A stretch of 64,000 bases of DNA from an uncultured Planctomycetia bacterium (lineage in GTDB: Bacteria > Omnitrophota > Gorgyraeia > 1-14-0-20-64-10): NCBI GenBank assembly GCA_964373715.1, contig CAYJVR010000001.1, positions 269,888 through 333,887 of the forward strand. Direction: 5' to 3'. This document shows, in pieces, positions 6,193 to 64,000 of the stretch. Position 1 is the stretch's first letter. Each line of letters starts with the position of its first letter. The position numbers were made by a program, and so were the translations under genes. The notes below the pieces were generated by a model. The model had not been told where the DNA came from, made no database searches, and worked only from the letters and a program-made list of their open reading frames with translations.

Positions 6193-6211
6193 GCTTTTTA
6201 AGGCCTCCTTT

Positions 6212-7279: not shown

Positions 7280-7286
7280 GGGGGTA

Positions 7287-49206: not shown

Positions 49207-50423
49207 TTTGATTGCGTTCCGTTGACCGGCGGTTTCCCGTTCTTCTGCAGGCCTGCCAGGTACTGCGCCGCCGTTTCCCTGCGCCGGGGCCGCTTGATGA
49301 ACGCGGCCATATGATAGTTCGACATGAGGTCCGACATACCGACATCCGGCCGGAACTTGCGCACGTCCTCCAGGATGCCGCTCAGCCGCGTCTCCTCAAA
49401 CTGGTTCAGCAGCCGCGGTGTCATCGCGGCCCGGAAGTGTGTCAGGTGCGGCGGGTATAGCCGCCTGGACCCGATGAGTTCCATGTCGCAGCGGTCCGCC
49501 ATCCGGATATAGTCGTCCAGCGTCGGGCGCTGTTTGCCGAAATGGAAGTAGTTGTACCGGCCGAGCCAGTCCTCCTGGTCCTCCGGATGAAATTCCCGGA
49601 TGTAGCGCCGGAAATCCTCCGAGCTCAGCCGCTGGCTCACGTAGGGAAATTTCCCGATCACCAGTGAGGAATTGACCGGGAACCACCAGTTGTCGCTCAG
49701 GAAGACAAACATCCCCCCGTCAGGCAGCAGTTCGCTCACCTTCGCGATCTTCCGTTCAGCGTCAAAGCAGGGCATCGAGCAGATGGAGGTGATCAGGTCG
49801 AACTTCTGGTTTTCCACCGTGTAGAGATCCTGCACGAGGAACTTGTCGATCGCCGGCACCGCGCGCAGCCGCATGTTCCAGAAAACGGAGCCGGGCGGAG
49901 GCATATAGCCGAAGACGGCGAAGGTCCGGGTCAGCCGTTTCCCTCCCCAGGTATCTTCTCCGACCAGGAACCGCTTCATCCGCGGCGAGAACCGGGCCAC
50001 GTCACACGCGGTCTTGTAGCGGATCCAGTGCTTCAGGAAGCGTCCCGTGGACAGCCGCTTGCCGAAATCGGCCAGCTCCAGGTTGGCCGCCCACCCGGCC
50101 CGCCCTTCCCCGCGCAGGAACCGGGAGACGGTCCCTTCCGCCCCGCCGATGTCGAGGGACCTGTCCCATCTCTTTTTCACGCCGAGGCTCTCAAGGAAAT
50201 CGATCACGATCGAATATTCGTACGCGTCCTTGATGAACCCGTCGATCCCGAACGGGGTCATCCCCTCATACCCTTCCGGCGGAGGTGTGGTGTCCGACTT
50301 CCTCGCGTGGATGTGGGCTTCCTGGTAGCCTGGAATGCACGCGATGTTCTTCCCGAACGATGTTGTAAAATCTGTTTTCACCGTCTGTCCATTTGTTTTT
50401 TCCTCAGAAAGGCTGTTATGCAT
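49203..50423 (-). CDS. class I SAM-dependent methyltransferase
   Basis: LDIGGAEGTVSRFL motif I and FDLITSICSM. Confidence 0.6.
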   Translation of the reverse strand: MHNSLSEEKTNGQTVKTDFTTSFGKNIACIPGYQEAHIHARKSDTTPPPEGYEGMTPFGIDGFIKDAYEYSIVIDFLESLGVKKRWDRSLDIGGAEGTVSRFLRGEGRAGWAANLELADFGKRLSTGRFLKHWIRYKTACDVARFSPRMKRFLVGEDTWGGKRLTRTFAVFGYMPPPGSVFWNMRLRAVPAIDKFLVQDLYTVENQKFDLITSICSMPCFDAERKIAKVSELLPDGGMFVFLSDNWWFPVNSSLVIGKFPYVSQRLSSEDFRRYIREFHPEDQEDWLGRYNYFHFGKQRPTLDDYIRMADRCDMELIGSRRLYPPHLTHFRAAMTPRLLNQFEETRLSGILEDVRKFRPDVGMSDLMSNYHMAAFIKRPRRRETAAQYLAGLQKNGKPPVNGTQSK

Positions 50424-51225
50424 GGAGCGGCATCTCCACCGGAGCCCGCATGATTTTCACCATCCGGTCTATTTCGGAAAGCTCGTGAGGGTGGATGTTC
50501 TGCCAGTCCGGCGGGAATTCGCACCGGAGGCCGTATTTTCGGCACAGCCGCTCGAAAACCGAGCGGTTGAAGAAGAAGTGGCGCAGCGTGGCCATCTTGA
50601 CTTCCCCCTTGGCCAGCTCGGTGTAGTTGCCGAGAAAGATCCCGTTCTCGTCGAGGAGTTCCGGCAGGTTCTTGATCAGCAGCTCGATATCGTCGACCGG
50701 CATATGGCTGAGCACTCCGTGCAACCAGATGTAGTCGAATTCCCTGCCGTTGAGCTTACCCAAGTCCATCGTCGGAGAAGCGACCAGTGCCGGCTGTTTG
50801 GCGGTGAGCTCGAATTTTTCGATGAAGCGCTGTCCCTGCGCGAGCCGTCCCCGGGAGATGTCCATGCCGGTGTATTTGCCGGGCTCCAGGTACCGGACGA
50901 AATGGATGCCTGCTCTCAGGTACCCGCAGCCGTAGTCGAGCAGAGAGTGGCGGGGTTCCAACCCGTGCTTTTTCACGTACTCGAGCTGGTTGTTCCCCAT
51001 CTCCACCTCGAACCCCTCGATGTAGGGCAAATCGGGAGTGTCGGCGAGGCTGTCCAGGGTTTTGGCGTACCACTCCTTGTAGCTCATGCCCCGCATCCGG
51101 TGGAACGCGTATGAGATGTAGTTGTAATGGTAGTTCCACCGCAAGAATGCCGCCACCTTGCGGATTCCGGGAAAACGGTTTGCCGCACGGCGGTAGGCGC
51201 TCTTTAAACTGTGCTTAAGGTTCAC
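50416..51225 (-). CDS. class I SAM-dependent methyltransferase
   Basis: LLDYGCGYLRAGIHF and FDYIWLHGVLSHM. Confidence 0.65.
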   Translation of the reverse strand: MNLKHSLKSAYRRAANRFPGIRKVAAFLRWNYHYNYISYAFHRMRGMSYKEWYAKTLDSLADTPDLPYIEGFEVEMGNNQLEYVKKHGLEPRHSLLDYGCGYLRAGIHFVRYLEPGKYTGMDISRGRLAQGQRFIEKFELTAKQPALVASPTMDLGKLNGREFDYIWLHGVLSHMPVDDIELLIKNLPELLDENGIFLGNYTELAKGEVKMATLRHFFFNRSVFERLCRKYGLRCEFPPDWQNIHPHELSEIDRMVKIMRAPVEMPLHA

Positions 51226-52406
51226 GATCTTTTCTCCTTTTGTTTAATCAACTCGGCGTACCACCGCTCGTAGGATACCGCCATGGTTTTTGCGTCAAAG
51301 TGGTTTTGAACGGTTTGTTTCGCCGCGGGTGTAAGTTGTCTGCCGAACGAAGGGTTCAGCAGTATCTTTTTGATTCCGCCCGCGAGCGCCGATGGGTTCC
51401 CGGGCGGAACCAGAAGCCCGTTCTTCCCGTTCAGGATGATCTCCGGTATCCCTCCCGAAGAGCAGGCGACCACCGGCACGCCGAGAGTCATCGCTTCAAG
51501 GACAGCGATGCCGAACGGTTCCCAGAGAGAGGGAAAGACGAACAGATCGCTTCCGTTCACCAGCGCTGGAGCGTCGTTCCTGGCGCCGAGGAAGCGGATC
51601 TGCTCCGACAGCCCCAATGCGCGGCTCTTTTTCTCGAGATGTTTTCGCTCGGGGCCTTCTCCCACTAGCAGGCATTCCAGGGGCAGATCCGGCTGGAGCT
51701 CTTTGATCGCTTCCAGCAAGACGCTATGCCCCTTGAACGGGACGAAGTTGGCCACTGTGACGATCCTCTTGCGGGCGGCCGTCTTCTGTTCCGGGCCGTT
51801 TGCCCCATTCGGAGAACCGTTGACTTGGGCTCGGACCTCTGCAACGTCCACGCTGTTGTGAATGACTCGGACCTTTGCCGGATCGATTTTCAGCCCCGGC
51901 CTGGAGCAAACCGCTTTTTTGACCGCTTGTGAGCAGGCGGCCAGGCCGTCGAAAGAGCGGTAGAGAGAGCGGTAAAACCCCGAGACCGCTTTCCACCGGA
52001 TGCGCCGGGCACCGTGCTCTGTTTCCCAGAGGAAATTGATCCCCTGGATCGTCGAGACGAGATGGGGCACCGGCGCCAGCCGGGTGGCGAAATAACCGTA
52101 CAGGTCCCCATGAAACAGGTGGGTGTGAACGATCTGCGGGTTCTCCCTCCGGATCAGTTTAGCGAGCCGTTTAACCGTCTTCAGCGTCGGAATTTTAGGG
52201 AAACTGAAGGCGATCCGCTTGACGCCCGGGATCCCGCCCAGCCGCCTGAAAAGCGGCGACGCCGGGCATACCACCGTGAGATCAAAATGGTTTTTGTCCA
52301 GGTGAAGCGCCAGAAGGCGAACCGTCGCCTCTCCTCCTCCCAGTGATCCGCTGGAAACGATGAACATGAGCCGGCTCTTTCGCGCCGCTGCGGCGTCAGC
52401 GCCCAT
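51222..52406 (-). CDS. glycosyltransferase family 4 (GT-B fold)
   Basis: VGEGPERKHLE…FVFPSLWEPFGIAVLEAMTLGVPVVACSSGGIPE. Confidence 0.75.
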   Translation of the reverse strand: MGADAAAARKSRLMFIVSSGSLGGGEATVRLLALHLDKNHFDLTVVCPASPLFRRLGGIPGVKRIAFSFPKIPTLKTVKRLAKLIRRENPQIVHTHLFHGDLYGYFATRLAPVPHLVSTIQGINFLWETEHGARRIRWKAVSGFYRSLYRSFDGLAACSQAVKKAVCSRPGLKIDPAKVRVIHNSVDVAEVRAQVNGSPNGANGPEQKTAARKRIVTVANFVPFKGHSVLLEAIKELQPDLPLECLLVGEGPERKHLEKKSRALGLSEQIRFLGARNDAPALVNGSDLFVFPSLWEPFGIAVLEAMTLGVPVVACSSGGIPEIILNGKNGLLVPPGNPSALAGGIKKILLNPSFGRQLTPAAKQTVQNHFDAKTMAVSYERWYAELIKQKEKRS

Positions 52407-53304
52407 CTTTTTTCTGCGCCAAAATATAAAGGGTCATCCCTGTTTCTCCGATCAGGCCAAGTCCGATATTCACCGGGACGGCGAGGCACCGGATGGCCGC
52501 CGATTTAAGCCGGTAAGCCCCGGAGGCCAGAGTTACGGAGGACTGTCTACCCGCCGCTGTTTCCTGTTTCTTCCCTCCGTGCAGCAGCCGGGTCACCAGG
52601 CCGAATTGGAGATGCTGGTGAAGGAAGCTCTCTCCCTGTTTCCAGCCGTTCGCTGTCCGCCGGATCTGAAAACCGTTCTTTTCAAGAAGGCAGGTTAAAG
52701 AGGTCCGGTTCCATTGGGTCACGTGGTTCGGCGGAAAATCCCAATCGTACCGGAACCGGGGCCACCGCTCCCTGTTCGGGACGCTCAAAACAAGGTAACC
52801 GTCCGGCTTTACTGCCGCGGCCGCCGCTTCCAGAAATTCTTTTGGAGCGGGGCTGTGCTCTAGCACCTCGAACGCGGTCACCACGTCGAACCGCCCGGTT
52901 TGTTTAAGCTCCCGGAGATCGCCGGTGAAGACCTCTTCCAGCCCGAATCGCTGCTTCGCGCTTTGGACCGCTTCGGCGTCAAAGTCAAAACCGGCAATCT
53001 CGTATCCGGCGGCTCCCGCGGCCGCGAGGAACTCTCCGGTGCCGCAGCCGACATCCAGCAGTTTCCCCCCTAAGGAGGGTGAATCCTTAAAAAATTCCCT
53101 GTGGTTCCACTGGAGTTTCGGCTTGGCGACCCTGTCACGCACGAGGTACATCTCCTGCCGGCGGTACCACTCCCCGTCCACCGAGGGCATCGGATCGGTG
53201 AAGACCAAGTCGCACGCGCTGCACCTCAAGAAATGGTACGGCGGCCGAGCTTCCTCTATCGGAGGACCCGAGACCGGCTCGGAGCAGGCCGGACAGTTGG
53301 GCAT
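52396..53304 (-). CDS. class I SAM-dependent methyltransferase with N-terminal zinc ribbon
   Basis: CPAC…(19 aa)…CSAC, followed by LLDVGCGTGEFL and FDVVTAFEVLEH. Confidence 0.65.
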   Translation of the reverse strand: MPNCPACSEPVSGPPIEEARPPYHFLRCSACDLVFTDPMPSVDGEWYRRQEMYLVRDRVAKPKLQWNHREFFKDSPSLGGKLLDVGCGTGEFLAAAGAAGYEIAGFDFDAEAVQSAKQRFGLEEVFTGDLRELKQTGRFDVVTAFEVLEHSPAPKEFLEAAAAAVKPDGYLVLSVPNRERWPRFRYDWDFPPNHVTQWNRTSLTCLLEKNGFQIRRTANGWKQGESFLHQHLQFGLVTRLLHGGKKQETAAGRQSSVTLASGAYRLKSAAIRCLAVPVNIGLGLIGETGMTLYILAQKKDGR

Positions 53305-54626
53305 CAGTGGACGATGAATCCCTCTTCTTTTGGCGCGCCGTGGCTTTTCCCGTTGCCTGGATGACCGTTCCCGGCACCGGAAGATGCCGGGACAGGCGGG
53401 AATTTCGGGTTGTAGTAGAGCCTTCGGTTCTTTTCCGAGAAGGTCCGGTCGTCCGATTGCGGCACTTGCGCTTCTTTCGCGCCGGGGTCCTGGATGTGGT
53501 GGATGATCGAATCAGTCACCCGCCACTTCCCGTTGGCCTCTTTTTTCCAGATCGAATGGTCCTTCATCGGTTCGACCGCCCCCTCGAACTCCGCCTCGGT
53601 CATCCCGAGGAACTTCAGGTAGAAATCGAGGCTCTTCGGCCTCACATGGTCGTACTCCCGGACCACCTCGATCCCCTCTTCGCGGGTCATTCGGCCGTAT
53701 CGGATTTCGGTGGAGGCGTCATCCGTTGACCGGCCGTAGCCGAACTTCAGGTACTTCATGTAGTCGTGCACCTCGTTCGCGTGGTCGTCGGTTTTCGCGC
53801 AGAGGTGGAATGTCTTGTCCCTCTTGCGGGCCAGCGGCTCGAATCCGCACTTCTCGAGCACCAACTCCGACTGGGCCTTCGGGTCCCAGTAAATGTAGTT
53901 GGTCAGGTAGATTCCCCGCACCCCGACCGATTCGATCTCTTCGTCGGTCGGATAGATGTAGGGGGCCAAATCCCGCATCGTGATGCCGCTTGCCGGGTCG
54001 TTCACGATGTCTTCCGGCTCGATCCCCCGCATGTCGTGTTCCTGGCGGACCCACTTCGTGAATTCCACCATGTCGTCCAGCGTGAAGACGCCGGTCAGCT
54101 CACCGTAATGCTCGGGCCAGACGATCAGAGGAACCTTGTACTTCACCGAGATCTGGAACGGCACCGTCATGATGCCGGCATGGTAGTGCCAGGTGATGTC
54201 GCCGACCCTCTTCACCATGTAGCGGGCGATTTTGCGGACAGATTCGGGGCTCGCGGTGAACCGGACCAGGTCCACGCCGAACCGGCTGACCAGGTTGTTC
54301 AGGTTCCGCAAGCCCAGCTCGGTGTTGAAGCAGTGGTTGAACGTGACGCACAGCGGGTTCAGCCCGTAGACCTCTTTGACCAGGTAGACCTGGAAATGGC
54401 TGTCCTTGCCGCCGCTGACCGGCACGATGCAGTCGTAGATCGCTCCCTGCCCCCTCTGCTTATCCCGGTATTCGGTCAACAGCTTCTCCAGCTTTTTCTC
54501 CCGGTCAGCCCAGTCTATCCGGTGGCGTGACTCGTGGTGACGGCAGCCGCTGCAGACCCCCTGCTCGTCGAAGAGGATAGTCGGTCTTGCGTTTTCCGGG
54601 TACAAACAACGCGCGCAGTATCTCAT
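53304..54626 (-). CDS. N-acetyl sugar amidotransferase (WbpG/WbuX/PseA family, PP-loop ATPase)
   Basis: N-terminal CARC…CSGC zinc ribbon and PP-loop VPVSGGKDS; adjacent to HisH/HisF homologs. Confidence 0.75.
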   Translation of the reverse strand: MRYCARCLYPENARPTILFDEQGVCSGCRHHESRHRIDWADREKKLEKLLTEYRDKQRGQGAIYDCIVPVSGGKDSHFQVYLVKEVYGLNPLCVTFNHCFNTELGLRNLNNLVSRFGVDLVRFTASPESVRKIARYMVKRVGDITWHYHAGIMTVPFQISVKYKVPLIVWPEHYGELTGVFTLDDMVEFTKWVRQEHDMRGIEPEDIVNDPASGITMRDLAPYIYPTDEEIESVGVRGIYLTNYIYWDPKAQSELVLEKCGFEPLARKRDKTFHLCAKTDDHANEVHDYMKYLKFGYGRSTDDASTEIRYGRMTREEGIEVVREYDHVRPKSLDFYLKFLGMTEAEFEGAVEPMKDHSIWKKEANGKWRVTDSIIHHIQDPGAKEAQVPQSDDRTFSEKNRRLYYNPKFPPVPASSGAGNGHPGNGKSHGAPKEEGFIVH

Positions 54627-55396
54627 CGGACCTCAATGCCTGCCTTTCGCAAATGTTCTTTCGCTTTTTTTGTGCTGTGTTCCGTGAAGTGGAAAACGTT
54701 CGCCGCCGAGACCGCTTCTACACCGGTCGAAATTCCTTCGGCCAGGTGTTCCCATTCAAACGCCCCGCCGAAAGCGATGACCGGGATGGATACCGCGTGC
54801 GCCACCTCGCGCATCAGTTCCAGGTCGTAGCCGTTCCGGGAGCCGTCATGGTCGATCGAGGTGAGGAAGATTTCCCCCGCCCCCCGGGCTTCGGCCTTTT
54901 TTGCCCACTCGACCGGCGTCATGGGCGTCGCTTCCCGGCCCCGGTCGATATAAACCCGCAGTCCGCCGGTCTCTCTCCGCACATCAATCGAGACCACGAT
55001 GCATTGACTGCCGAAAATTTTCGCGCAGTCGGTGATAAATTCCGGCCGGCGGACCGCTTCGGTGTTGACCGCCACCTTATCCGCTCCAAGCCTCAGCAGG
55101 TTCTTTACCTCCTCCGGCGATGTGACCCAGCCTCCCGCGGTCAGCGGAACAGTGCATTTCTTTGAAATTGCAGATATTGCGTCATAAAATTTCTGCCGGT
55201 TCTCTGTGGTGCGACTCACATCGAGCAGGACGATCTCATCCACCGCCCACTTGTTGAAGAAGTCAACTGCGGTTTCCGGCTTCCAATGGAGCACATTGGT
55301 ATGCCGGAATCCGACGCTCTGGACCACTTGGCCGTTACGCAGGATAAGGACAGGAATCAGCCGTTTTTTCAGCATAGTTTCGCGCAATTGACGCAA
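54623..55396 (-). CDS. hisF: imidazole glycerol phosphate synthase cyclase subunit homolog (HisF-like; LPS-type)
   Basis: KRLIPVLILRNGQVV…AGGWV…GADKVAVNT…[10 protein letters not shown]…IAFGGA. Confidence 0.85.
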   Translation of the reverse strand: MRQLRETMLKKRLIPVLILRNGQVVQSVGFRHTNVLHWKPETAVDFFNKWAVDEIVLLDVSRTTENRQKFYDAISAISKKCTVPLTAGGWVTSPEEVKNLLRLGADKVAVNTEAVRRPEFITDCAKIFGSQCIVVSIDVRRETGGLRVYIDRGREATPMTPVEWAKKAEARGAGEIFLTSIDHDGSRNGYDLELMREVAHAVSIPVIAFGGAFEWEHLAEGISTGVEAVSAANVFHFTEHSTKKAKEHLRKAGIEVR

Positions 55397-56006
55397 AGTT
55401 TTCCAGGAGTTTTAAGCCTACCCTCTGGCTTTTCTCCGGATGAAACTGAAGGCCATAAATGTTTTCTTTTTGGACGCTCGCTACAATTTCTGTCCCATGC
55501 CAGCATGTGGAAGTGATAACGGAATATTCTTCTGGCGCCACGACCATCTGGAAGCTATGAACGAAATAAAAAACAGGATCTTCCGGTAGTGCTTCAAATA
55601 AACCGCCGGTTTTTTTTATATCGAGATCGTTCCAGCCCATATGAGGAATCTTAAACTTCACGTCTGCAGGACGGATCCTTTTGACGCCGCTCTTAATCCA
55701 GCCAAATCCTGAATCAAGGCCGCCTTCTTCGCTGACTCCCTCGGCTAAAAACTGCATGCCCAAACAAATGCCTAGGTAGGGTTTTTTCTTTTCCTGCACT
55801 TCTTCGAAGAGGGGCTTAATTAATCCGGAGCGAGATAGATTCCTTATGCCGTCACTAAAAGCACCAACTCCGGGCACAACAATTGCTGATGCGTTTTGTA
55901 AATCAGCCGCTTTTCTCGCGATCTGCACTTTCTCGCCGATCGCCTCGAACGCGTTGGCGACCGACCGCAGATTCCCCATCCCGTAATCCACCAGCGCGAG
56001 CCGCAT
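55335..56006 (-). CDS. hisH: glutamine amidotransferase subunit homolog (HisH-like; LPS-type)
   Basis: [16 protein letters not shown]…PGVGAF…GICLGMQ…HSF…QFHPEKS (Cys-His-Glu triad context). Confidence 0.85.
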   Translation of the reverse strand: MRLALVDYGMGNLRSVANAFEAIGEKVQIARKAADLQNASAIVVPGVGAFSDGIRNLSRSGLIKPLFEEVQEKKKPYLGICLGMQFLAEGVSEEGGLDSGFGWIKSGVKRIRPADVKFKIPHMGWNDLDIKKTGGLFEALPEDPVFYFVHSFQMVVAPEEYSVITSTCWHGTEIVASVQKENIYGLQFHPEKSQRVGLKLLENFASIARNYAEKTADSCPYPA

Positions 56007-56650
56007 TAGTTTCTCACCGGGTAACCGCCCCTGCGATTCAGGAACGCTTTTGCTTTAATGGGGCTGATGTCGCGAAAATGGAATATAGATGCAGCGGCAG
56101 CGCCGGTAGCCAATCCCTGGCTAAATGCGAGCGCGAGATCTTCTAATTTACCTGCTCCGCCCGAGATGATTACCGGGATCTTCACTGCTTTGCAGATTGA
56201 TTGGGCAAGCTCAAGATCATACCCTTCCATGGTTCCGTCTCTATCTATCGAAGTGAGTAAGATTTCTCCGGCCCCTAACGCCTCAATCTTTTTCGCCCAA
56301 TCCAAAGGGTTCATTCCGGTCCCGTTGCTGCCGCTATGAGTCATGACTTCATATGAATTGCCATTCTTTTTTGCATCAATTGAAACCACAATGCACTGGC
56401 TGCCAAAGATCTTGGCCGCTTCTCTTATAAACTCCGGATTTTGAACCGCAGCGGTGTTAACAACAACCTTGTCAGCGCCAACAAGTAAAAGCTTTCGAAT
56501 ATCTTCGACGGTCCGAATGCCTCCGCCAACAGTCAGCGGCATAAAAACCCGCCCAGAAATTTCAGAAACGGCATTTGCTAATTGGTCAATGCCGCGCTCT
56601 TCTGTGGTTGCGCGAAAATCAAGAAAGACGAGTTCATCTGCTAGCTGGGC
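55380..56650. other. local GC dip (about 45-50% against about 60% in flanks), covering the standalone hisH and the HisF-domain half of the hisHF fusion
   Basis: 60-nt windows inside this patch count 35-50% GC, for example 55561-55620 about 35% and 56461-56520 about 42%. Flanking windows at 54721-54780 and 56881-57000 count about 60%. Confidence 0.55.
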
Positions 56651-57451
56651 GTCGTAGACCATCGGGGCCTTGACCGGGTGGCCGACGTCATGGCGGATGC
56701 CGTTTTCCTGGATCTGGAACCGGACCGTCTTCGTGAGCCGCCCTTTGTTGTACAAGAGGGTCGGGATCAGCCGGATGTTTGGCGTCTTTTTCTCGTTGGT
56801 TTTAAGGGTCCCCAAGGGTTCGGTTTCTTCAGTTGTTGGATCCCAGGTAAGAAAATTCTTTAACAGGCCGAGGCCGGCTTCCTGGCTCTTCTCCGGGTGG
56901 AACTGGACCCCGGCGATGTTCTCCTTGACGATCGCCGAGTGGAACGTTTCCCCGTATGCGGTGGTGGCGGCGACAGCCGCCAGGTTATCGGACACGACAT
57001 GGTAGCCGTGCACGAAATAGAAATAAGGGACCCGCTTCAATCCTTTAAAGAGGAAACTGGGCCGGGCCGGGACCGCTTCGTCCCACCCAATGTGGAGCGT
57101 TTTCAGAGAGCCGTTTCTTTTGAAAGGTTTAACGCCGGCGGACACCCATCCGAGGCCCGGATGCCGCCCCTGTTCCAAGCTCTCTTTCGCGAGCAACTGC
57201 ATGCCGAGGCAGATGCCGAGAAACGGGGTTTTCCTGACCCGCACTGTTTTTGTCAGCGGCCCGATCAGCCCAAGTTTGTCCAGGTTCTGCATCCCCTGGC
57301 CGAACGCGCCGACCCCCGGCAGAACGATCTTTTCCGCGTTCTCTATGTCGGCCGGACGGCTGGTCACCTGGACTTCGGCGTTCAGCGTTTCGAACGCCCG
57401 GGCGACCGAACTCAAGTTCCCCATCCCGTAGTCGATAATGGTAACCTTCAT
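56006..57451 (-). CDS. fused HisH-HisF homolog (glutamine amidotransferase domain + cyclase domain in one polypeptide)
   Basis: The N-terminal domain [16 protein letters not shown]…GICLGMQ…QFHPEKS and the C-terminal domain [18 protein letters not shown]…GGGI…GADKVVVNT…[10 protein letters not shown]…ISGGAG are joined by the linker [22 protein letters not shown]. Start set at MKVTI (ATGA overlap). Confidence 0.8.
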
Positions 57452-58647
57452 TCTTTCGCTCCCGGAGAGACCCATTTCTCCTGGTCCCAGAGGGGCGCCC
57501 CTTTTTCCACGTGGCGTAGGTCCGGTTTGTGGGGGTAGACCGCGTGCTCAAGCGCGATCTTATTGAACTCCTCTTCGGTCATGCCGACCAGCTTCAGGAA
57601 GACGTCGAGCGAGGCGGGCCGCTTGCCGTCGAATTCCGCCATCAGTTTCTCCCCCTGCTCGCGGGTCATCCGGCTGTTCCGGATATCAATGCTGGCCAAA
57701 TGGTTCGTCCGGCCCATCCCCCGCTTGATGAAGCGCAGGTAGTCCCGCACCCCCTGCAGATAGCATTCGATCTTTTCGTAGCCGTAGCCATCCGGGACCC
57801 CTTCGACCGCTTCCTCTTTCCAGCCCAGCTCCCGCTTGATCACCTCGACTTGGGCCTTGACGTCCCACGGAATGTAGGTCCCCAGGCAGATTGACCGGTA
57901 GCCGAGTTTTTTCAGCTCCTCCTTGGGCGGGTACCGGAACGGCTCCAGGTCCCGCTCGTCGATCCCTTGCCCGAGCATGCCGGCCATGTCCTCCGCGGTG
58001 ATCCCGAGGTTGATGTAACGGTTGAACCGCTTCTCGTCCACGAGTTCCTGCTCGTCCTGGCGGAAGTAGGCGTTGTACTCGGTATTCGGCTCCCCCCAGA
58101 TCACCAAAGGCACCTGGAACCGGATCGCCATCTGCATCGGGAAGGAGAAGATGCCGGTGTGGCAGTGCCAGCAGAAGTCTCCCTTCCTCTTGAGGCTTTC
58201 CACCATGAGCCGGCGCACCACCTTCCAGCCGGCCCGGAACTTGAGGAAGTCAACGCCGAGCGCCCGGATCGTCCGCTCGGTGTTCTCGATCACGGTCGGG
58301 CGCAGGAACCCGTGGTCGAAGCAGACCACCAGCGGTTTGAGCCTGAACTGTTTCACGAGCGTGTAGGCGGTGTAGGTGCTGTCCTTGCCTCCGGAGAACG
58401 GAATGATGCAGTCGTAGGCATACTTGCCGCGGTAGCTGTCGAGCAATCCTTCAAACTCACGCTTTTTGGCGGCCCAGTCGATCACCTGCTGTTTGTGCTC
58501 GATGTTCCGGCAGACGTTGCAGACCCCTTCGGCGTCGAACACGATCGTGTCGTGCGTTTCGGCGAGCAGGCAGCGGACACAGCGCCTCAGTTTCGAGGCG
58601 CTCTCCTGCAATGAGGAGCTTTCTTTATCGAGCGACGGGTTCGGCAT
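57448..58647 (-). CDS. N-acetyl sugar amidotransferase (WbpG/PseA family), second copy
   Basis: CVRCLL…CNVC zinc ribbon and PP-loop IPFSGGKDS; paralog of the 53304..54626 gene. Confidence 0.75.
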   Translation of the reverse strand: MPNPSLDKESSSLQESASKLRRCVRCLLAETHDTIVFDAEGVCNVCRNIEHKQQVIDWAAKKREFEGLLDSYRGKYAYDCIIPFSGGKDSTYTAYTLVKQFRLKPLVVCFDHGFLRPTVIENTERTIRALGVDFLKFRAGWKVVRRLMVESLKRKGDFCWHCHTGIFSFPMQMAIRFQVPLVIWGEPNTEYNAYFRQDEQELVDEKRFNRYINLGITAEDMAGMLGQGIDERDLEPFRYPPKEELKKLGYRSICLGTYIPWDVKAQVEVIKRELGWKEEAVEGVPDGYGYEKIECYLQGVRDYLRFIKRGMGRTNHLASIDIRNSRMTREQGEKLMAEFDGKRPASLDVFLKLVGMTEEEFNKIALEHAVYPHKPDLRHVEKGAPLWDQEKWVSPGAKE

Positions 58648-59734
58648 GCACCTTTTTCTCCGATCGGCTGACGACCATATCCCATGAGAGGGGCGTCCCC
58701 TTAGCGATGTCCCGCGCCGCCTTCTTTCCCAGGACCACCGGCAGTTCCTTCGGCGGAAGCCCGTGCGCGGGCCGGATCGAGCGGACGTTCCGCTCCGTGA
58801 AGATTTCCCCCTCTTTGATGTCGGCCACCACGAAGAGAGAGCGCCGGAACACCCTGTTCTTTTCCTCTTCCGGTGTTGCTTTGTAGTCGGGTGAGCCGAT
58901 CGCCTGCTCCACCATACGGATACCCTTCACCATCGCGGCGAACTCCTGCGGCTCGAGAGAGAAACCGGCGTCTGGCCCACCCTTCGCGCGGGAGAGGATC
59001 AGATGTTTCTCCACGATGCAGGCTCCGAGTGCCACTGCGGCCAGCGCCACCTCGGTTCCGAGCGTGTGGTCCGAAAGCCCGGCCGGCGCATGGAATGTTT
59101 TGGCCAGGTGCGCGATCGTCAAAAGATTCATGTCGGATGGTGTCGCCGGGTAGCCGCTGGTGCATTTCAAGAGCGCGATCTGTTTCGCGCCCGATTCCCG
59201 AGCCGTTTTCACCGCCTCGGCAATTTCACGGAGATTGGCCAGGCCGGTGGATAGGATCATCGGTTTCCCGGTTTTGGCAATCCGCTGAATGAGCGGGATA
59301 TCCACGATCTCAAACGAGGAAACCTTGTAGGCCGGCACCCCCATTTTCTCGAGGAAATCGACCGCGGTCGGGTCGAACGGTGAGCAAAAAAGATCGATCC
59401 CGGCCTCTGCGGCGACCTTTTTCAGCTTCGGCTGCCATTCCCACGGGGTGTGCGCTTCCTTATAGAGGTCGTGGAGCGTCCGGCCGGCCCAGGGGCTCCC
59501 CTTGCCGATCTTGAACTCCGGCCTGTCCGAATCGAGCGTGATCGTGTCCGGCGTGTAGGTCTGCAGTTTCGCCGCGTCGGCCCCCGCCTTTTTCGCGGCC
59601 CGGATCAGCTCCGCCGCCTGCTCGAAAGAGCCGCCGTGGTTGCAGGAGATCTCCGCCACCAGGTAAGCCGGGTGCCCCGCGCCGATCTTCCTGCCGTTGA
59701 TTTCGATAAAAGTTTTTTGTTCCCGCATCGTCAC
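58625..59734 (-). CDS. NeuB-family nonulosonic acid synthase (PseI/LegI/NeuB-like) with C-terminal SAF domain
   Basis: EISCNHGGS, metal-binding GLSDHTLG and VEKHLIL, and a C-terminal SAF/antifreeze-like domain (…GEIFTERNVRSIRPAHGLP). Confidence 0.8.
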   Translation of the reverse strand: MTMREQKTFIEINGRKIGAGHPAYLVAEISCNHGGSFEQAAELIRAAKKAGADAAKLQTYTPDTITLDSDRPEFKIGKGSPWAGRTLHDLYKEAHTPWEWQPKLKKVAAEAGIDLFCSPFDPTAVDFLEKMGVPAYKVSSFEIVDIPLIQRIAKTGKPMILSTGLANLREIAEAVKTARESGAKQIALLKCTSGYPATPSDMNLLTIAHLAKTFHAPAGLSDHTLGTEVALAAVALGACIVEKHLILSRAKGGPDAGFSLEPQEFAAMVKGIRMVEQAIGSPDYKATPEEEKNRVFRRSLFVVADIKEGEIFTERNVRSIRPAHGLPPKELPVVLGKKAARDIAKGTPLSWDMVVSRSEKKVHAEPVAR

Positions 59735-61089
59735 ATTTTCCTGAAAACGGGTTGAATGACAGGCCCTTCGAGCGACTGAAGCAGTTTCCCCTCTTTGAGG
59801 ATCTGCGACAGCAGTTCCAGCACGCTTCGGTAGACCATCAGCACTGATTCCACAGCCGTCTCGTCATGGGCGGCGCAGAGGTTGTGGGCCCCCGTGAACA
59901 GATAGCCACGCTTGATGCATTCCTGCTGGACGAAGGTCTTCATCGCCATTGCCTCCGGGTCCGGGTGGAATCCGATCCCGGTCCTCGGCGGCAGACCGGA
60001 GCACTCGGTCCTTTCTTTCAGGCAGTAGGCTTCGGCCAGCAGGTTGTACCCTTCTTTGATCTGCCGGCCCCGCGCCCAGATCCCTTCCAAGGTGCCCGGT
60101 TCCTCCATCGCCTGAATTGTGGCCAGCGCCGCCGCGATCGATGCGGTCTCACCTGCGAAGGTGAACGAGAAAAATATTTCGTCGAACAGCGCCATTACGT
60201 CGCGCCGGCCGACGATCGCCGAGACCGGCATCCCGTTGGCCATCCCCTTGCCGAAGCAGGCCAGGTCCGGTGTTACCCCGAAATGTCCCTGCGCGCCGCC
60301 TAAGCCCAGCCGGAAGCCGGTCACCATCTCATCGAAGACGAGCAGGGCCCCGTTCTTTTGGGCCAGCTCCTTCACCCCTTCGAGGAAGCCCTGTTTCGGC
60401 TCCGCGAGCCCGACCGGCTCCATGATCACCGCGGCGATTTTCCCCGGGTGCTGTTCAAACAGAGACTTCAAAGACTCAAGGTCGTTATAGCGGAATGTCT
60501 TTGTCAGCTCGGCAACCGCTTTCGGGACCCCCTTGTTCCGGGTGGTCGTGCCGACGTACCAGTCCTGCCAGCCGTGGTAGCCGCAGCAGGCGATCAGATC
60601 GCGGCCAGTGAAGGCGCGTGCCGCCCGGACCGCGGCTGACGTCACGTCGGAACCGTTCTTGCCGAACCGGACCATCTTGGCGCAGGGGATCAGCCGGGTC
60701 AGTATTTCGGAAAGCTCCACCTCGAGCGGGTGGCTGAGCGTGAAGACAGTTCCCTGTTTTGCCTGCGCCGCCACCGCTTGAGCGACGCGCGCGTCTCCGT
60801 AGCCGAGCATGAGCGCTCCCAGCGCCATCGAGAAATCGAGGTATTTGTTGCCGTCGATATCCCAGACAAAACAGCCGGAGCCCCGCTCCAGATAGACTGG
60901 CGCAACCCCCTGCACGAACTGGGAGGGGCCTTTGCTGAAGGTCTGCGAGCAGGCGGGGATTACCTTCTCGGCTCGTTTCTTCAACTGGCGGGATTTTTCC
61001 AGCGTCCGAGCGCGTGCCGCCAGTGCCGGCTTCTCGATCAGCGATTGGCAGAGTTCCTGGATTGACGTTGTTTCAGCTGTTTTTGGCAT
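59731..61089 (-). CDS. class III PLP aminotransferase, glutamate-1-semialdehyde 2,1-aminomutase (HemL)-like
   Basis: FDEMVTGFRLGLGGAQGHFGVTPDLACFGKGMANGMPVSA hallmark of the GSA-AM family, here inside a sugar-biosynthesis cassette. Confidence 0.8.
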   Translation of the reverse strand: MPKTAETTSIQELCQSLIEKPALAARARTLEKSRQLKKRAEKVIPACSQTFSKGPSQFVQGVAPVYLERGSGCFVWDIDGNKYLDFSMALGALMLGYGDARVAQAVAAQAKQGTVFTLSHPLEVELSEILTRLIPCAKMVRFGKNGSDVTSAAVRAARAFTGRDLIACCGYHGWQDWYVGTTTRNKGVPKAVAELTKTFRYNDLESLKSLFEQHPGKIAAVIMEPVGLAEPKQGFLEGVKELAQKNGALLVFDEMVTGFRLGLGGAQGHFGVTPDLACFGKGMANGMPVSAIVGRRDVMALFDEIFFSFTFAGETASIAAALATIQAMEEPGTLEGIWARGRQIKEGYNLLAEAYCLKERTECSGLPPRTGIGFHPDPEAMAMKTFVQQECIKRGYLFTGAHNLCAAHDETAVESVLMVYRSVLELLSQILKEGKLLQSLEGPVIQPVFRKM

Positions 61090-61687
61090 GGTTCGCAGAC
61101 CTGGACTTCAGATAGTCCGATTTCAGAATACCCATCACCGTTTTGTCCCGGAATGCCCCGTCCCGGAACAGCTGTTCCTTGAGGGTCCCTTCCACTGTGA
61201 AGCCGAGTTTTTTGTACGACCGGACAGCTCCCTCATGGTCGGCGTAAACGCCGAGTGTGATCTTATGCAGGTTCAGCCTCTTGAAGCCGTACTCCAGCAG
61301 CAGCTCCATCGCCTCGGAGCCGTACCCCTTCCCCCAGACCCTTTTGTCCCCCACCATGATCCCGATGTCGGCGTTCCGGTGCAGAGGGTGGATGTTCCCC
61401 AGCTTCACGTTGCCGACGTGGCGGTTGGCCTTCTTCTCGATAATCGCCAGCATGACGTTGTTCGGGTGCTTGGCGATGTTCTCCAGGTAGTTGCGCAGAG
61501 TGGCGGTTGTGGTCGGGAAAGAGCCGGTTTCCAGGAACCGGGTCACCTCGTAATTATTGAGCCAGTCAAAGTAGGGCCCGTCCAGGTCGGTCATCTCCAT
61601 CGGACGCAGGTAGATCCTGGCGCCGGTGAGAAATGGGTGGCGGAGTTCCCCCTCTTTCTTCTGTTGCCGAATGGCTGTTTTTGTCAC
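61073..61687 (-). CDS. GNAT-family N-acetyltransferase (RimL-like)
   Basis: GARIYLRPMEMTDL…HVGNVKLG…VWGKGYGSEAM acetyl-CoA binding motif. Confidence 0.75.
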   Translation of the reverse strand: MTKTAIRQQKKEGELRHPFLTGARIYLRPMEMTDLDGPYFDWLNNYEVTRFLETGSFPTTTATLRNYLENIAKHPNNVMLAIIEKKANRHVGNVKLGNIHPLHRNADIGIMVGDKRVWGKGYGSEAMELLLEYGFKRLNLHKITLGVYADHEGAVRSYKKLGFTVEGTLKEQLFRDGAFRDKTVMGILKSDYLKSRSANHAKNS

Positions 61688-61697
61688 GGTTTTTCCC

Positions 61698-62708
61698 CTA
61701 TTCCGGCCGGGTGGTCTGTACCGTTTCCCGGAAAGTCCCTTTTTCCCTCGCGGAGAGGGCCAGCTCCAGCGTGCGGCATCCTGTTTCGAGGTCAGCGGCC
61801 GGTTTTTCCCTGTTCGCGATGCAGTCGAGGAGATGGTTCATTTCCAGCAGGTACATCATGTTGCCGTCGTAAGATTTCTTGTCGAGCAGGGTTTCCCAGC
61901 TTTTCCGGGAGGCGTCGTAGCGCCGCACCAGGATTTTTTCGGGAGATTTCCCCTCGCTTTCCCAAACAAGCGTGCCGCGCGTGCCGATGATTTCGCAGCC
62001 CCTGAGCTTCACCTGGTTCAGGTAATCGGCCTCGATAACGCCGACAGCGCCCGAATCGAATTTGAGGACCATCAGAGCGGTGTCTTCCGTCTCGATTTCC
62101 AGGTTGCTCACCTTGTCCGCGAAGGCGTCGGCCACGGCCGCCTCCCCTCCGATCCAGCGGAGATAATCAATCTCGTGGAGACATTCCAGGATGATTCCCC
62201 CGCCTTGATTCGCCCTGGCGCTGTAGGTCGCCCGGTAATCGGTGCCCGGTCTCCAGTTTGGAAGGTAGTGGCTGAACCGGGATTTGAAGAAAAGAGGTTT
62301 CCCTATCTCTCCGGCGGCCAGCGACCGCTGCAGCGTTTCGACACCGGGATGAAACCTCATGTTGCAGCCGGTCAGCACCGCCTGCCCTTTGACCTCAGCG
62401 ACGATTCGCCAGGCTTCCTCCAGAGAGTCGGCCACCGGTTTCTCGATAAAAAGAGCGCATCCGGCCTTCAGGCATTCGATGGCCGGGTCGGCATGCTCGT
62501 GCGTCGGCGTGCAGATCAGAGCCGCGTCCGGTTTTTCCCGGAGAGCCTCTGTGAGCGAAGAGAAGCTCCGGACGCCGTGTGTTTTTGCTGTTTCTTCGAC
62601 CCGGGCCGGGTCGGTGTCAAAAACAATCACTTCCCCCGCTTTAAGCGTTAACAGGTTGGCGATGTGCCGTTTGCCGATTGAGCCGCAGCCGACAACGAGA
62701 AATTTCAT
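61698..62708 (-). CDS. Gfo/Idh/MocA-family NAD(P)-dependent sugar oxidoreductase
   Basis: MKFLVVGCGSIGKRH Rossmann N-terminus and EKP motif (ALFIEKPVA). Confidence 0.8.
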   Translation of the reverse strand: MKFLVVGCGSIGKRHIANLLTLKAGEVIVFDTDPARVEETAKTHGVRSFSSLTEALREKPDAALICTPTHEHADPAIECLKAGCALFIEKPVADSLEEAWRIVAEVKGQAVLTGCNMRFHPGVETLQRSLAAGEIGKPLFFKSRFSHYLPNWRPGTDYRATYSARANQGGGIILECLHEIDYLRWIGGEAAVADAFADKVSNLEIETEDTALMVLKFDSGAVGVIEADYLNQVKLRGCEIIGTRGTLVWESEGKSPEKILVRRYDASRKSWETLLDKKSYDGNMMYLLEMNHLLDCIANREKPAADLETGCRTLELALSAREKGTFRETVQTTRPE

Positions 62709-63415
62709 CTCTTGACCTCCTCCGGCGAACGCTCCAGAGCTTCCATCAGAGCTTCCGCGATCACCAAGTGCCCAGGTTCGTCAATGTCCACCGACCTCTC
62801 GCGCGGGATCTTCCAGCCGATTGTTTTATCGCTGAAAAGCCGTTTCTCCCGCCGGAGTGCATCCAGCTTCATAAAATAGAAATAGCCGGAGTCCACCCAG
62901 ACGGGGGGGAGTTTCTGCGAGGCCACCAGGTACTGTTCTCCGAAGAAAAGCTTCAGGAAGCCGTTTTCCTCCTGCAGCGCCCAGAACGGGGGCTCCAGGA
63001 AAGTGGTGATTGCCTGGCAGATCTCCGCGTTCCGTTCCTTTATCAGCGCGTAGCCGCCGCGCAGATCCTCCGGCCGCATCAACACCGCGGTCGGCAGGAT
63101 CAGGCAGAGAGTGTCCACCGGTTTTCCCTGTTCCTCCAGCCAGCCGGCGAAGTTGAGGCAGACGTCGGCAAGCCGGGCGGTATCGCCGGCCAGTTCCGGG
63201 GACCGCTCATGCACCCGGGCGCCGAACCGGGCGGCTGTTTCGGAGATCTCCTTGTCATCGGTGGAGACCCAGATTTCCGGAAAGAGCCCGCTAGCGGCCG
63301 CCGCTTCGATGGTCCAGCCGATCACCGGCTTCCCCTTCAAGGAGGCGATGTTCTTTCGGGGGAACCTCTTCGACCCGCCGCGCGCCGGTATCAAACACGC
63401 CAAATTCTCAGACAT
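62705..63415 (-). CDS. CMP-nonulosonic acid synthetase (acylneuraminate cytidylyltransferase, NeuA/PseF/LegF family)
   Basis: LIPARGGSKRFPRKN N-terminal signature. Confidence 0.8.
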   Translation of the reverse strand: MSENLACLIPARGGSKRFPRKNIASLKGKPVIGWTIEAAAASGLFPEIWVSTDDKEISETAARFGARVHERSPELAGDTARLADVCLNFAGWLEEQGKPVDTLCLILPTAVLMRPEDLRGGYALIKERNAEICQAITTFLEPPFWALQEENGFLKLFFGEQYLVASQKLPPVWVDSGYFYFMKLDALRREKRLFSDKTIGWKIPRERSVDIDEPGHLVIAEALMEALERSPEEVKR

Positions 63416-64000
63416 GGTCCCAGGTGATCCCCTCGTTTTCGGCGATCTCCTTGAGCGCCGGTTTGCCCAGGAAATAGCCGAGGTACTCCGGCGATATCCC
63501 GTTCTCCGGGCGCATCCCGATGAGGTGCTCTTCGGTCAGAACCGTCCCCTTTTTGATCGGGGTCCGGGCCGCCAGGTGCCGGAACCACTTCTTCCTCTCG
63601 GCCTGGTCGGCCTGGCTTGGGATCAGGTCGGGAACGCCGACGCCGTCCTGCACCTGCCGTAAAACCTTCACATGCTCGGCGAACTCTTTCGGTTCGAGCG
63701 ACAGCACGTGATGGTGGCCCGGCAGAGTCCGGCTCATCGTGAGCCTCTTCTCCAGCACCGAGGAGCCGAGCGTCACCGCCATGATGTCCGGCGCCGGGTC
63801 CCGGTCGCGCGACGAATAGCCGGCCACCGTTTGGAATGTTTCCTTCAGGTAGGGGATCGTTGCCATGTTCAGCTCGCCGTAGGTGTCGGCGTGGCAGCAG
63901 TGGACAAGGACCGACTGGTCGTTGCCCTGCTCGATCATCAGTTCGATCACCTTGGCCGCGTCCGTTACATCCACCGGCCCGGTGTCTATCAGCATCGGCT
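63408..64000 (-). CDS. second NeuB-family paralog (C-terminal part only; gene continues past window end), with both conserved metal-binding His replaced
   Basis: It aligns to the first NeuB-like protein: GYSSRDRDPAPDIMAVTLGSSVLEKRLTMSR against GLSDHTLGTEVALAAVALGACIVEKHLILSR. The SAF-like C-terminus is retained (TPIKKGTVLTEEHLIGMRPENGISP). Confidence 0.5.
   Translation of the reverse strand, partial: PMLIDTGPVDVTDAAKVIELMIEQGNDQSVLVHCCHADTYGELNMATIPYLKETFQTVAGYSSRDRDPAPDIMAVTLGSSVLEKRLTMSRTLPGHHHVLSLEPKEFAEHVKVLRQVQDGVGVPDLIPSQADQAERKKWFRHLAARTPIKKGTVLTEEHLIGMRPENGISPEYLGYFLGKPALKEIAENEGITWDHV

Follow-up and report, generated by a model that had tools for sequence, protein, structure and literature searches.

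A widespread oxidoreductase, aminotransferase and acetyltransferase module in a putative pseudaminic acid-type operon of Omnitrophota, with a possible role in late amination of nonulosonates

Here we analyze a stretch of 64,000 nucleotides (nt) of contig CAYJVR010000001.1 (assembly GCA_964373715.1) from an uncultured bacterium of the Omnitrophota, hereafter the window, and in particular its last 5.4 kb (58625-64000), at the 3' edge, which an initial annotation had described as a sialic acid-like biosynthetic cassette of non-canonical composition. Nearly every gene of the window lies on the minus strand, and between position 64000 and about 48300 neighbouring genes either share 1-62 nt or leave gaps of at most 10 nt, so that they can be taken as one operon. 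The five genes named in the initial annotation (NeuB, NeuA, Gfo/Idh/MocA oxidoreductase, class-III aminotransferase and GNAT) are all present and intact on the minus strand. The features of the cassette are:

63408..64000, minus strand: NeuB2, the C-terminal 197 residues of an atypical NeuB-family protein (PF03102 and SAF matches; 593 bases in the window)
62705..63415, minus strand: NeuA/PseF-type nonulosonate cytidylyltransferase, designated CTw (CTP_transf_3, PF02348, E 1.1e-24)
61698..62708, minus strand: Gfo/Idh/MocA NAD(P)-dependent oxidoreductase, designated Gfo (three Gfo/Idh/MocA Pfam domains)
61073..61687, minus strand: GNAT N-acetyltransferase, SpeG/AAC(6')-like, designated GNATw (Acetyltransf_3, E 2e-24)
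59731..61089, minus strand: class-III (glutamate-1-semialdehyde (GSA) aminomutase-like) pyridoxal phosphate (PLP) aminotransferase, designated AT (PF00202, E 8.5e-51)
58625..59734, minus strand: predicted pseudaminic acid synthase PseI (PF03102, E 5.9e-89; TIGR03586, 480 bits)

The E-values behind these gene identities are far beyond chance. Judged by its sequence, the product of 58625-59734 is clearly a bona fide PseI: its score with the PseI model TIGR03586 is well above the cut-off of 340 bits and that with the NeuB model is below the cut-off (316 versus 400 bits), it matches the solved pseudaminic acid synthase 8h2c with 298 bits versus 162 bits for the Neisseria meningitidis NeuB (NmNeuB), and it keeps the NmNeuB catalytic and metal-binding residues that were checked (E25, K53, Q55, K129, E134, H215, H236 and D247), with Ser in place of NmNeuB Asn184, as in CjPseI. 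The sialic acid-like cassette of the initial annotation can thus be specified as one of the pseudaminic acid (Pse) type. The best model for CTw is PseF (TIGR03584, 182.7 bits, cut-off 205.7), and among solved structures it is closest to NeuA CMP-nonulosonate synthetases.

The window ends inside NeuB2, and the upstream part of the locus was read from a public contig that matches the final 1001 nt of the window with 100% identity and reaches about 9.4 kb past its end. Going outward from CTw, this extension encodes the complete NeuB2 (347 amino acids (aa); L001:6639-7682, where L numbers denote compared loci; its start lies 451 nt past the window end), a NodU-like carbamoyltransferase and an RmlD-like reductase (L087:6333-8968, or approximately 64448-67083 in window numbering), and a PseG-like hydrolase (344 aa, about 3.1-4.1 kb past the window end; TIGR03590, 119 bits, cut-off 154). 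Farther upstream follow a MarR-type exopolysaccharide (EPS) regulator, a PseB-like dehydratase (371 aa, about 5.8-6.9 kb past the window end; TIGR03589, 309 bits, cut-off 408; 45% identity with a bona fide PseB), a protein of unknown function and a PMT_2 glycosyltransferase. No DegT/PseC gene was found within 10 kb upstream of CTw (about 9.4 kb past the window end), and the region from about 10 kb upstream to 17 kb downstream of the cassette contains neither a PseC-type DegT aminotransferase nor a PseH-type GNAT. The remark in the initial annotation that the PseB/PseC pair is not adjacent is therefore correct inside the window and, for PseC, over the 9.4 kb past its end, but PseB-like and PseG-like genes do lie just beyond that end; no canonical pseBCHGIF set was encountered there, and the aminotransferase is not a housekeeping hemL (see below). 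The sole DegT protein of the window itself (40521-41678) reaches 265 bits with the PseC model (cut-off 424) and 334 bits with the LegC model (cut-off 420), is only 26% identical to the RmlD-DegT fusions of related loci, and sits in Arn-like GT2/PMT_2 surroundings. Compared with the canonical PseB/C/H/G/I/F pathway of Campylobacter and Helicobacter, the locus shares a full PseI, PseB-, PseG- and PseF-like proteins and PseA/WbuX-type acetamidino formation, but has neither PseC nor a canonical PseH and encodes, in addition, Gfo, AT, GNATw, the RmlD-like reductase, the carbamoyltransferase and NeuB2.

Three enzymes are encoded between CTw and PseI. Gfo contains the motifs GCGSIG and EKP and shares 41% identity, across its entire length, with its oxidoreductase counterpart in a canonical Pse flagellin locus. 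In AT, the signature FDEMVTGFR occupies residues 252-260, and we take Lys281, which corresponds to an invariant alignment column, to be the PLP lysine; the nearest solved relatives are GSA aminomutases (about 200 bits), followed by D-phenylglycine, aminopentol and aminoglycoside C-6' aminotransferases. The structures nearest to GNATw are spermidine/diamine N-acetyltransferases and AAC(6') enzymes, with no PseH structure matched in the structure search, and BLAST of GNATw against the PseH-like domain that is fused to PseG in canonical loci gave no match. We rejected the assignment of GNATw as a canonical PseH given this lack of similarity and a score of 57 bits with the PseH model TIGR03585, below the cut-off of 93; GNATw may be doing the job of PseH in this locus.

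To place the trio in context, about 160 related loci were compared, with each open reading frame (ORF) of the fetched loci classified against reference proteins. Homologs of AT account for at least 582 matching stretches in a one-genome-per-species collection, in hosts that include Acidobacteriota, Nitrospirota, Planctomycetota, Chloroflexota, Omnitrophota and Aquificota, and those with 55-60% identity are plentiful; together with descriptions of similar loci in Aeromonas and Legionella, this abundance shows that the arrangement is not rare. Among the best 120 AT homologs, 80 carry an N-terminal SpsF-type cytidylyltransferase, and in non-redundant loci single-ORF fusions combine cytidylyltransferase with AT (54), Gfo with cytidylyltransferase and AT (15), Gfo with AT (1), and GNAT with AT (1). 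SpsF of Bacillus subtilis is required for the transfer of legionaminic acid, not for its synthesis (PMC7439481), a phenotype that fits an activating role. CTw itself is an unfused protein. Its orthology with the fused SpsF-type domain was considered and rejected, the identity being about 30% over the first 64-74 residues only.

The loci anchored on AT usually run PseB, PseC, an optional GNAT, Gfo, the cytidylyltransferase-AT fusion, a fusion of PseG with a PseH-like GNAT, and PseI. In the 57 such loci of at least 18 kb, the components were found as follows:

PseB: 50/57 loci
PseC-type DegT: 48/57 loci
PseG: 53/57 loci
NeuB-family synthase: 54/57 loci
Gfo homolog: 40/57 loci
SpsF-type cytidylyltransferase: 55/57 loci

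In one example (L005), which adjoins flagellin genes, PseB, PseC, PseG and PseI all score above the NCBIfam cut-offs and are accompanied by Gfo and the cytidylyltransferase-AT fusion; another (L100) combines PseB, PseC, a PseH-like domain fused to PseG, a Gfo-AT fusion and GNATw in a single locus. Since PseB and PseC-type DegT proteins are present in most of these loci, the module would seem to be, as a rule, an add-on to the Pse pathway and not a replacement for PseB and PseC, which is the role that the initial annotation gave to the trio. A second subfamily of class-III aminotransferases, 33-37% identical to the AT of the window, occupies the same slot, behind Gfo and GNAT, in loci that are syntenic in other respects (L091, L110, L125, L132, L148, L153, L155 and L160).

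The same data bear on the idea that AT is a housekeeping hemL that happens to lie in the locus. The GSA aminomutase structures nearest to AT and its FDEMVTGFR motif would fit such an assignment, but AT scores 250 bits with the hemL model TIGR00713 (cut-off 527) and 400 bits with NF004856 (cut-off 486), its gene lies in a glycan operon, where it overlaps both neighbours, and relatives of about 60% identity are fused to cytidylyltransferase and oxidoreductase domains in Pse loci of Acidobacteriota, Nitrospirota, Planctomycetota, Chloroflexota and others. We rejected this assignment, which we consider hardly credible; with its occurrence in nonulosonate loci of many phyla, AT stands apart from hemL, as first proposed.

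A second survey was anchored on NeuB2, in loci from metagenomes, and is unbiased for AT. In the 25 loci of this set that extend 5 kb or more downstream of NeuB2, Gfo was found in 13/13 loci with AT and in 0/12 without it (Fisher p = 2e-7), and GNATw in 9/13 and 0/12, respectively (p = 4.6e-4). With these patterns of co-inheritance and the Rosetta-stone fusions, Gfo, AT and GNATw look like one co-inherited functional module. In the loci of this set with at least 5 kb upstream of NeuB2, 14 carry only a PseC-type DegT, 6 only an RmlD-like reductase with a carbamoyltransferase, none both, and 5 neither; all 6 loci with the reductase and carbamoyltransferase (6/6) have Gfo and AT and no PseC. From this gene content, the RmlD-like reductase and the carbamoyltransferase appear to stand in for PseC in the locus under study. 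In three loci, RmlD-like and DegT domains make up a single fusion protein about 700 aa long (L019:4153-6330, L032:7903-9978 and L091:1-409), an odd combination if both domains compete for the same 4-keto sugar.

At which stage of the pathway the module acts is suggested by the fusions and by the chemistry of the sugar. O5 forms part of the ring in the UDP-6-deoxy-hexosamine, and O3 is the oxygen through which the nonulosonate ring is closed at a later stage. With both engaged in rings, C4-OH and C8-OH are the sole free hydroxyls on the canonical Pse skeleton, and they become available only after hydrolysis and condensation. In other lineages, AT and Gfo homologs form single proteins with a cytidylyltransferase, the enzyme that activates the finished acid; the likely substrate of the module is therefore the nonulosonate or its CMP ester, late in the pathway, as opposed to an NDP-hexose. 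The NDP-hexose route, in which the trio would oxidise, transaminate and acetylate a ring hydroxyl of the hexose ahead of condensation, was implied by the original comparison with WbpB/WbpE/WbpD. The three-step chemistry is indeed the same, the logic of the three activities fits, Gfo is of the same superfamily as WbpB, and its second-best NCBIfam match is the archaeal UDP-GlcNAc 3-dehydrogenase. That match, at 119 bits, is far under the cut-off of 450. All three proteins fall outside the WbpB, WbpE and WbpD families: WbpE is a DegT-type aminotransferase and WbpD a left-handed beta-helix protein, whereas here these steps fall to class-III and GNAT enzymes. Furthermore, the hexose C3-OH is required for closure of the nonulosonate ring, C5-O is the hexose ring oxygen, the module as a rule accompanies a full Pse pathway, and AT is fused to a CMP-transferase in 69 loci (54 without Gfo and 15 with Gfo in the same protein, as detailed above). 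We therefore keep from the comparison the treatment of the trio as one unit, and regard an action on NDP-hexoses as very improbable; the substrate here is probably a nonulosonate, as opposed to the UDP-hexuronate of the Wbp enzymes.

A late-acting module suggests the following route. The product of the PseB-like dehydratase would be reduced by the RmlD-like enzyme instead of being aminated, as in WbvB/WbvR chemistry. In the WbvB/WbvR synthesis of UDP-L-RhaNAc, a PseB-like inverting 4,6-dehydratase is followed by an RmlD-like 4-reductase. The same enzyme pair is encoded just upstream of the window, where, in contrast, it is accompanied by a PseG-like hydrolase and NeuB-family synthases, which suggests that the reduced sugar feeds a nonulosonate. 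The PseG-like hydrolase would free this sugar, which PseI would condense to a nonulosonate with oxygen, perhaps as an O-carbamoyl group, at C7; oxygen at this position is probable because PseC is absent and the reductase and carbamoyltransferase are found in its place. Gfo would then oxidise a free C8 or C4 hydroxyl of the nine-carbon acid to a ketone, before or after CMP activation, AT would convert the ketone to an amine, GNATw would acetylate the new amine, and the amidotransferases would turn acetamido into acetamidino groups. On the canonical Pse skeleton, both C8 and C4 adjoin a nitrogen-bearing carbon, and only C4 does so if C7 carries oxygen; such a neighbour recalls the alpha-aminocarbonyl/vicinal-diamine chemistry of GSA aminomutase. 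The second of two N-acetyl groups would be supplied by the trio, which would match the two amidotransferase sets of the operon. As product we predict an unusual di-N-acyl nonulosonate, for example, a 5,8- or 4,5-diamino sugar, that bears acetamidino groups as well as carbamoyl or methyl groups.

Mechanistically, late amination finds its best parallel in the Kdo8N pathway of Shewanella, where KdnB oxidises a side-chain hydroxyl of the free ulosonic acid and a transamination follows before incorporation. The aminotransferase of this pathway is KdnA. The Kdo8N enzymes differ in that KdnB is an iron-type alcohol dehydrogenase and the families are unrelated to those described here, and in that an eight-carbon sugar is modified at a primary alcohol. 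For the aminotransferase and acetyltransferase steps we draw an analogy with gentamicin and neomycin biosynthesis, where class-III aminotransferases (GenQ/GenB and NeoN) aminate exocyclic sugar carbonyls, including a methyl ketone derived from CH(OH)CH3, and AAC(6') enzymes acetylate; the similarity is distant (at most 158 bits) and the substrates there are aminoglycosides.

The same set of genes could be arranged into a different sequence of steps, in which the RmlD-like enzyme makes a 4-hydroxy hexose and the trio, acting after condensation, installs the ordinary 7-acetamido group, replacing PseC and PseH; this would yield a normal 5,7-diamino nonulosonate that bears acetamidino groups in addition to a carbamoyl group. 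The absence of PseC-type DegT and PseH-type GNAT genes over the range given above points in this direction, as do the presence of Gfo and AT and absence of PseC in all six loci with the reductase and carbamoyltransferase, the pairing of two N-acetyl groups with two WbuX copies, and the finding, read from locus maps, that PseC occurs in 9/9 NeuB2-type loci without AT versus about 5/12 of those with it. The AT of the window, on the other hand, is 55-60% identical to aminotransferases of loci in which PseC and a PseH-like GNAT are present and C7 is already aminated, so that the regiochemistry would differ between orthologs. Reduction and subsequent re-oxidation of the same carbon would also be roundabout, and in L092, a close relative, PseC coexists with Gfo and AT. 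On these grounds we consider the replacement of PseC and PseH by the trio unlikely, albeit worth keeping in mind, and favor amination at a further position, C8 or C4.

Related gene sets have been described before. In the polar-flagellin glycosylation islands of Aeromonas group I, the order is pseB-pseC-reductase-pseF-class III aminotransferase-pseG-pseI, and the sugar is a Pse 'derivative' of unknown structure (PMC7874193). These islands share with the present locus a Pse cluster whose cytidylyltransferase is flanked by an oxidoreductase and a class-III aminotransferase. Aeromonas, however, has an aldo-keto reductase, PseC and a flagellin target, whereas the locus analyzed here has a Gfo/Idh/MocA protein, no adjacent PseC, NeuB2, a carbamoyltransferase, two amidotransferase sets and a lipopolysaccharide (LPS)-type context. 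The LPS locus of Legionella pneumophila serogroups (Sg) 6 and 12 (Sg6/Sg12) reads GNAT-PseG-class III aminotransferase-cytidylyltransferase-acetyltransferase-HisF-HisH-WbuX-like-aryl alcohol dehydrogenase (PMC3694923). Here, the set of functions, including the acetamidino machinery, and the location in an O-antigen locus are shared, but the gene order and the oxidoreductase family differ, and the Legionella sugar is of the legionaminic type. In a Vibrio cluster, an SpsF-like cytidylyltransferase is fused to an aldo-keto reductase (PMC7371886).

Several observations weigh against late amination in a Pse-type pathway. The oxidoreductase that partners the aminotransferase or cytidylyltransferase in Aeromonas, Legionella and Vibrio is an aldo-keto reductase, and enzymes of this family usually reduce, so that the reaction could run from amine to ketone to alcohol. 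In that case, Gfo and AT together would remove an amine or invert a hydroxyl, yielding, for example, a 4-epi or 8-epi acid with no extra amine. In line with such an outcome, 4-epi-legionaminic acid has reportedly been found in non-Sg1 L. pneumophila, whose locus carries this aminotransferase. We consider this direction rather improbable: the GNAT-AT fusion and the strict association of GNAT with AT suggest that an amine made by AT is then acetylated, and an epimerase would need no aminotransferase. The lack of canonical PseH and PseC in window-type loci counts here as well, as the trio could be supplying the ordinary 7-N-acetyl group. Among the proteins themselves, those that are PseB-like, PseG-like and PseF-like all fall below the equivalog cut-offs, and the DegT protein at 40521-41678 could serve as PseC. 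The co-occurrence counts come from loci that are not phylogenetically independent. We infer the oxidation site, the direction of the reaction and the form of the substrate (free acid versus CMP ester) from the arguments given above. A literature search yielded no 4- or 8-amino nonulosonate and no carbamoylated pseudaminic acid, and we know of no natural nonulosonate with an amino group at C4 or C8; the literature found on the function of the trio in pseudaminic, nonulosonic or legionaminic acid loci consists of descriptive annotations. Taking these points into account, we put the probability of the reading as a whole, in which the region is the core of a pseudaminic acid-type nonulosonate operon inside an LPS/surface-glycan locus and the trio acts in late amination, at roughly 0.5.

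The gene at the window end, NeuB2, departs from the known synthases. It scores 200 bits with the NeuB model (cut-off 400) and 177 bits with the PseI model (cut-off 340), and its residues were read from an alignment with NmNeuB, CjPseI, BsSpsE and the PseI of the window, across 120 homologs. Neither of the two histidines that bind the metal in NmNeuB is kept: Arg stands in for H236 in 120/120 homologs, and the position of H215 is variable, with Arg in the protein of the window. The substitutions N29T, H30C, Q55I, S154D, Y186H and D247H are found in 120/120 homologs and E134D in 119/120, while the phosphoenolpyruvate (PEP)-binding lysines, E25, E234 and R314 are retained. The homologs, 102/120 of which are exactly 347 aa long, share 60-82% identity across phyla; a decayed pseudogene was rejected as an explanation on this constancy of length and on the invariance of the substituted residues. 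In terms of sequence, NeuB2 is a protein that shares the NeuB fold family and is not a canonical member of NeuB, PseI or LegI, and we speculate that it has a rebuilt Cys/His metal site, as in 3-deoxy-D-manno-octulosonate 8-phosphate (KDO8P) or 3-deoxy-D-arabino-heptulosonate 7-phosphate (DAHP) synthases. A NeuA/PseF-type cytidylyltransferase of the CTw type directly follows NeuB2 in 47/52 loci, and a canonical PseI-type gene is also present in about 13/17 well-covered NeuB2 loci, as counted from locus maps. The typical NeuB2 operon reads PseB, PseC, NeuB2, cytidylyltransferase, PseG, PseH or a formyltransferase in some loci, and PseI.

Taken together, the module and NeuB2 lead to a compound proposal that we advance tentatively and hold to be less probable than its negation: that Gfo, AT and GNATw, coupled to the cytidylyltransferase, form a so far undescribed late amination pathway, giving rise to a new class of nonulosonic acids in which C8 or C4 bears an additional acetamido or acetamidino group, and that NeuB2 represents a new enzyme family with the NeuB fold and a rebuilt, Cys/His-rich active site, working with the cytidylyltransferase. 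As part of this proposal, and at the same tentative level, ordinary Pse loci with the module would produce 5,7,8- or 4,5,7-triamino sugars, and this locus a 5,8- or 4,5-diamino, 7-O-carbamoyl sugar.

Downstream of PseI, the operon continues with amidotransferase, tailoring and transfer genes as far as 48319, followed by a Capsule_synth pair:

57448..58647, minus strand: WbuX/PseA-like N-acetyl sugar amidotransferase, copy 1 (TIGR03573, 352 bits, cut-off 203)
56006..57475, minus strand: fused HisH-HisF (WbuY-WbuZ-like) glutamine amidotransferase/cyclase partner, 489 aa (GATase and His_biosynth; WbuZ 277 bits, HisH 210 bits)
55335..56006, minus strand: HisH-like glutaminase subunit, second set (TIGR01855, 215 bits, cut-off 105)
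54623..55396, minus strand: HisF/WbuZ-like subunit, second set (WbuZ 262 bits, cut-off 300; AglZ/HisF2 220 bits)
53304..54626, minus strand: WbuX/PseA-like N-acetyl sugar amidotransferase, copy 2 (TIGR03573, 359 bits, cut-off 203)
52396-53304, minus strand: methyltransferase (Pfam match)
51222-52406, minus strand: GT4 glycosyltransferase (Pfam match)
50416-51225, minus strand: methyltransferase (Pfam match)
49203-50423, minus strand: 406-aa protein of unknown function
48319-49206, minus strand: PhyH-like dioxygenase (Pfam match)
43881..47946, minus strand: two tandem Capsule_synth (PF05159) proteins (E 8e-13 and 3e-12)

Each of the two WbuX copies, which are 38% identical to each other and above the TIGR03573 cut-off, has its own HisH/HisF partners, in the order WbuX and fused HisH-HisF, then HisH, HisF and the second WbuX. 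Both HisH scores exceed the cut-off of 105 bits and both WbuZ-like scores are just under that of 300. The acetamidino decoration proposed in the initial annotation is thus borne out by gene content. HisH and HisF of the second set are separate genes with an overlap of 62 nt, and the duplication of the amidotransferases is kept in an Omnitrophota metagenome-assembled genome (MAG). In this MAG, the nearest named relative, 15 genes are syntenic with the locus of the window, with AT 79% identical; the methyltransferase and the GT4 glycosyltransferase of the operon are also syntenic there. The stop and start codons of the tailoring and transfer genes at 48319..53304 overlap, which places them in the same operon.

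We infer from their family and position that the Capsule_synth pair at 43881-47946 comprises candidate nonulosonate transferases; genes of this family follow the NeuB2-cytidylyltransferase pair in L090 and lie downstream in L003/L004. The 871-aa Capsule_synth ORF at 45331-47946 overlaps a 524-aa ORF at 46791-48365 in another frame and, because of this overlap, the true start of this upstream copy is probably internal.

The remainder of the window makes up an LPS/O-antigen-type locus, with GT9 heptosyltransferases, a Wzy_C ligase, GT2 glycosyltransferases, PMT_2 proteins and sugar epimerases, and housekeeping genes beyond. Between 35997 and 43065, the DegT gene (40521-41678), a GT2 gene (39686-40528), methyltransferases and two PMT_2 genes make up an ArnB/ArnC/ArnT-like set, which may be a separate amino-sugar lipid-carrier modification system. 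An epimerase/dehydratase-family protein at 26790-27776 gives weak, sub-threshold matches to ArnA and UDP-xylose synthase, among several others. The GC content drops to 0.507 at 42001-44000, a stretch occupied by one PMT_2 and one methyltransferase gene, compared with 0.55-0.61 elsewhere; this dip may mark recently acquired glycan genes. In the housekeeping part, two adjoining, partly overlapping ORFs of 375 and 383 aa at 5197-7363 encode galactose-1-phosphate uridylyltransferase-like/HIT-family proteins.

Nonulosonic acids, such as sialic, pseudaminic and legionaminic acids, decorate flagella, LPS and capsules and shape immune recognition, phage attachment and motility. The accessory module of oxidoreductase, aminotransferase and cytidylyltransferase is widespread and recognisable, being present in hundreds of species of many phyla, including the pathogens Aeromonas and Legionella, and is known in the literature by annotation only. 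The mutual exclusivity of PseC and the reductase-carbamoyltransferase pair, as well as the conserved NeuB2-cytidylyltransferase pair, provide directly testable hypotheses. If the extra amino group is real, the chemical repertoire of this sugar family would be larger than catalogued, the 'Pse derivatives' of unknown structure seen by mass spectrometry could be explained, and new biocatalysts for aminated sialic acid analogues would become available.

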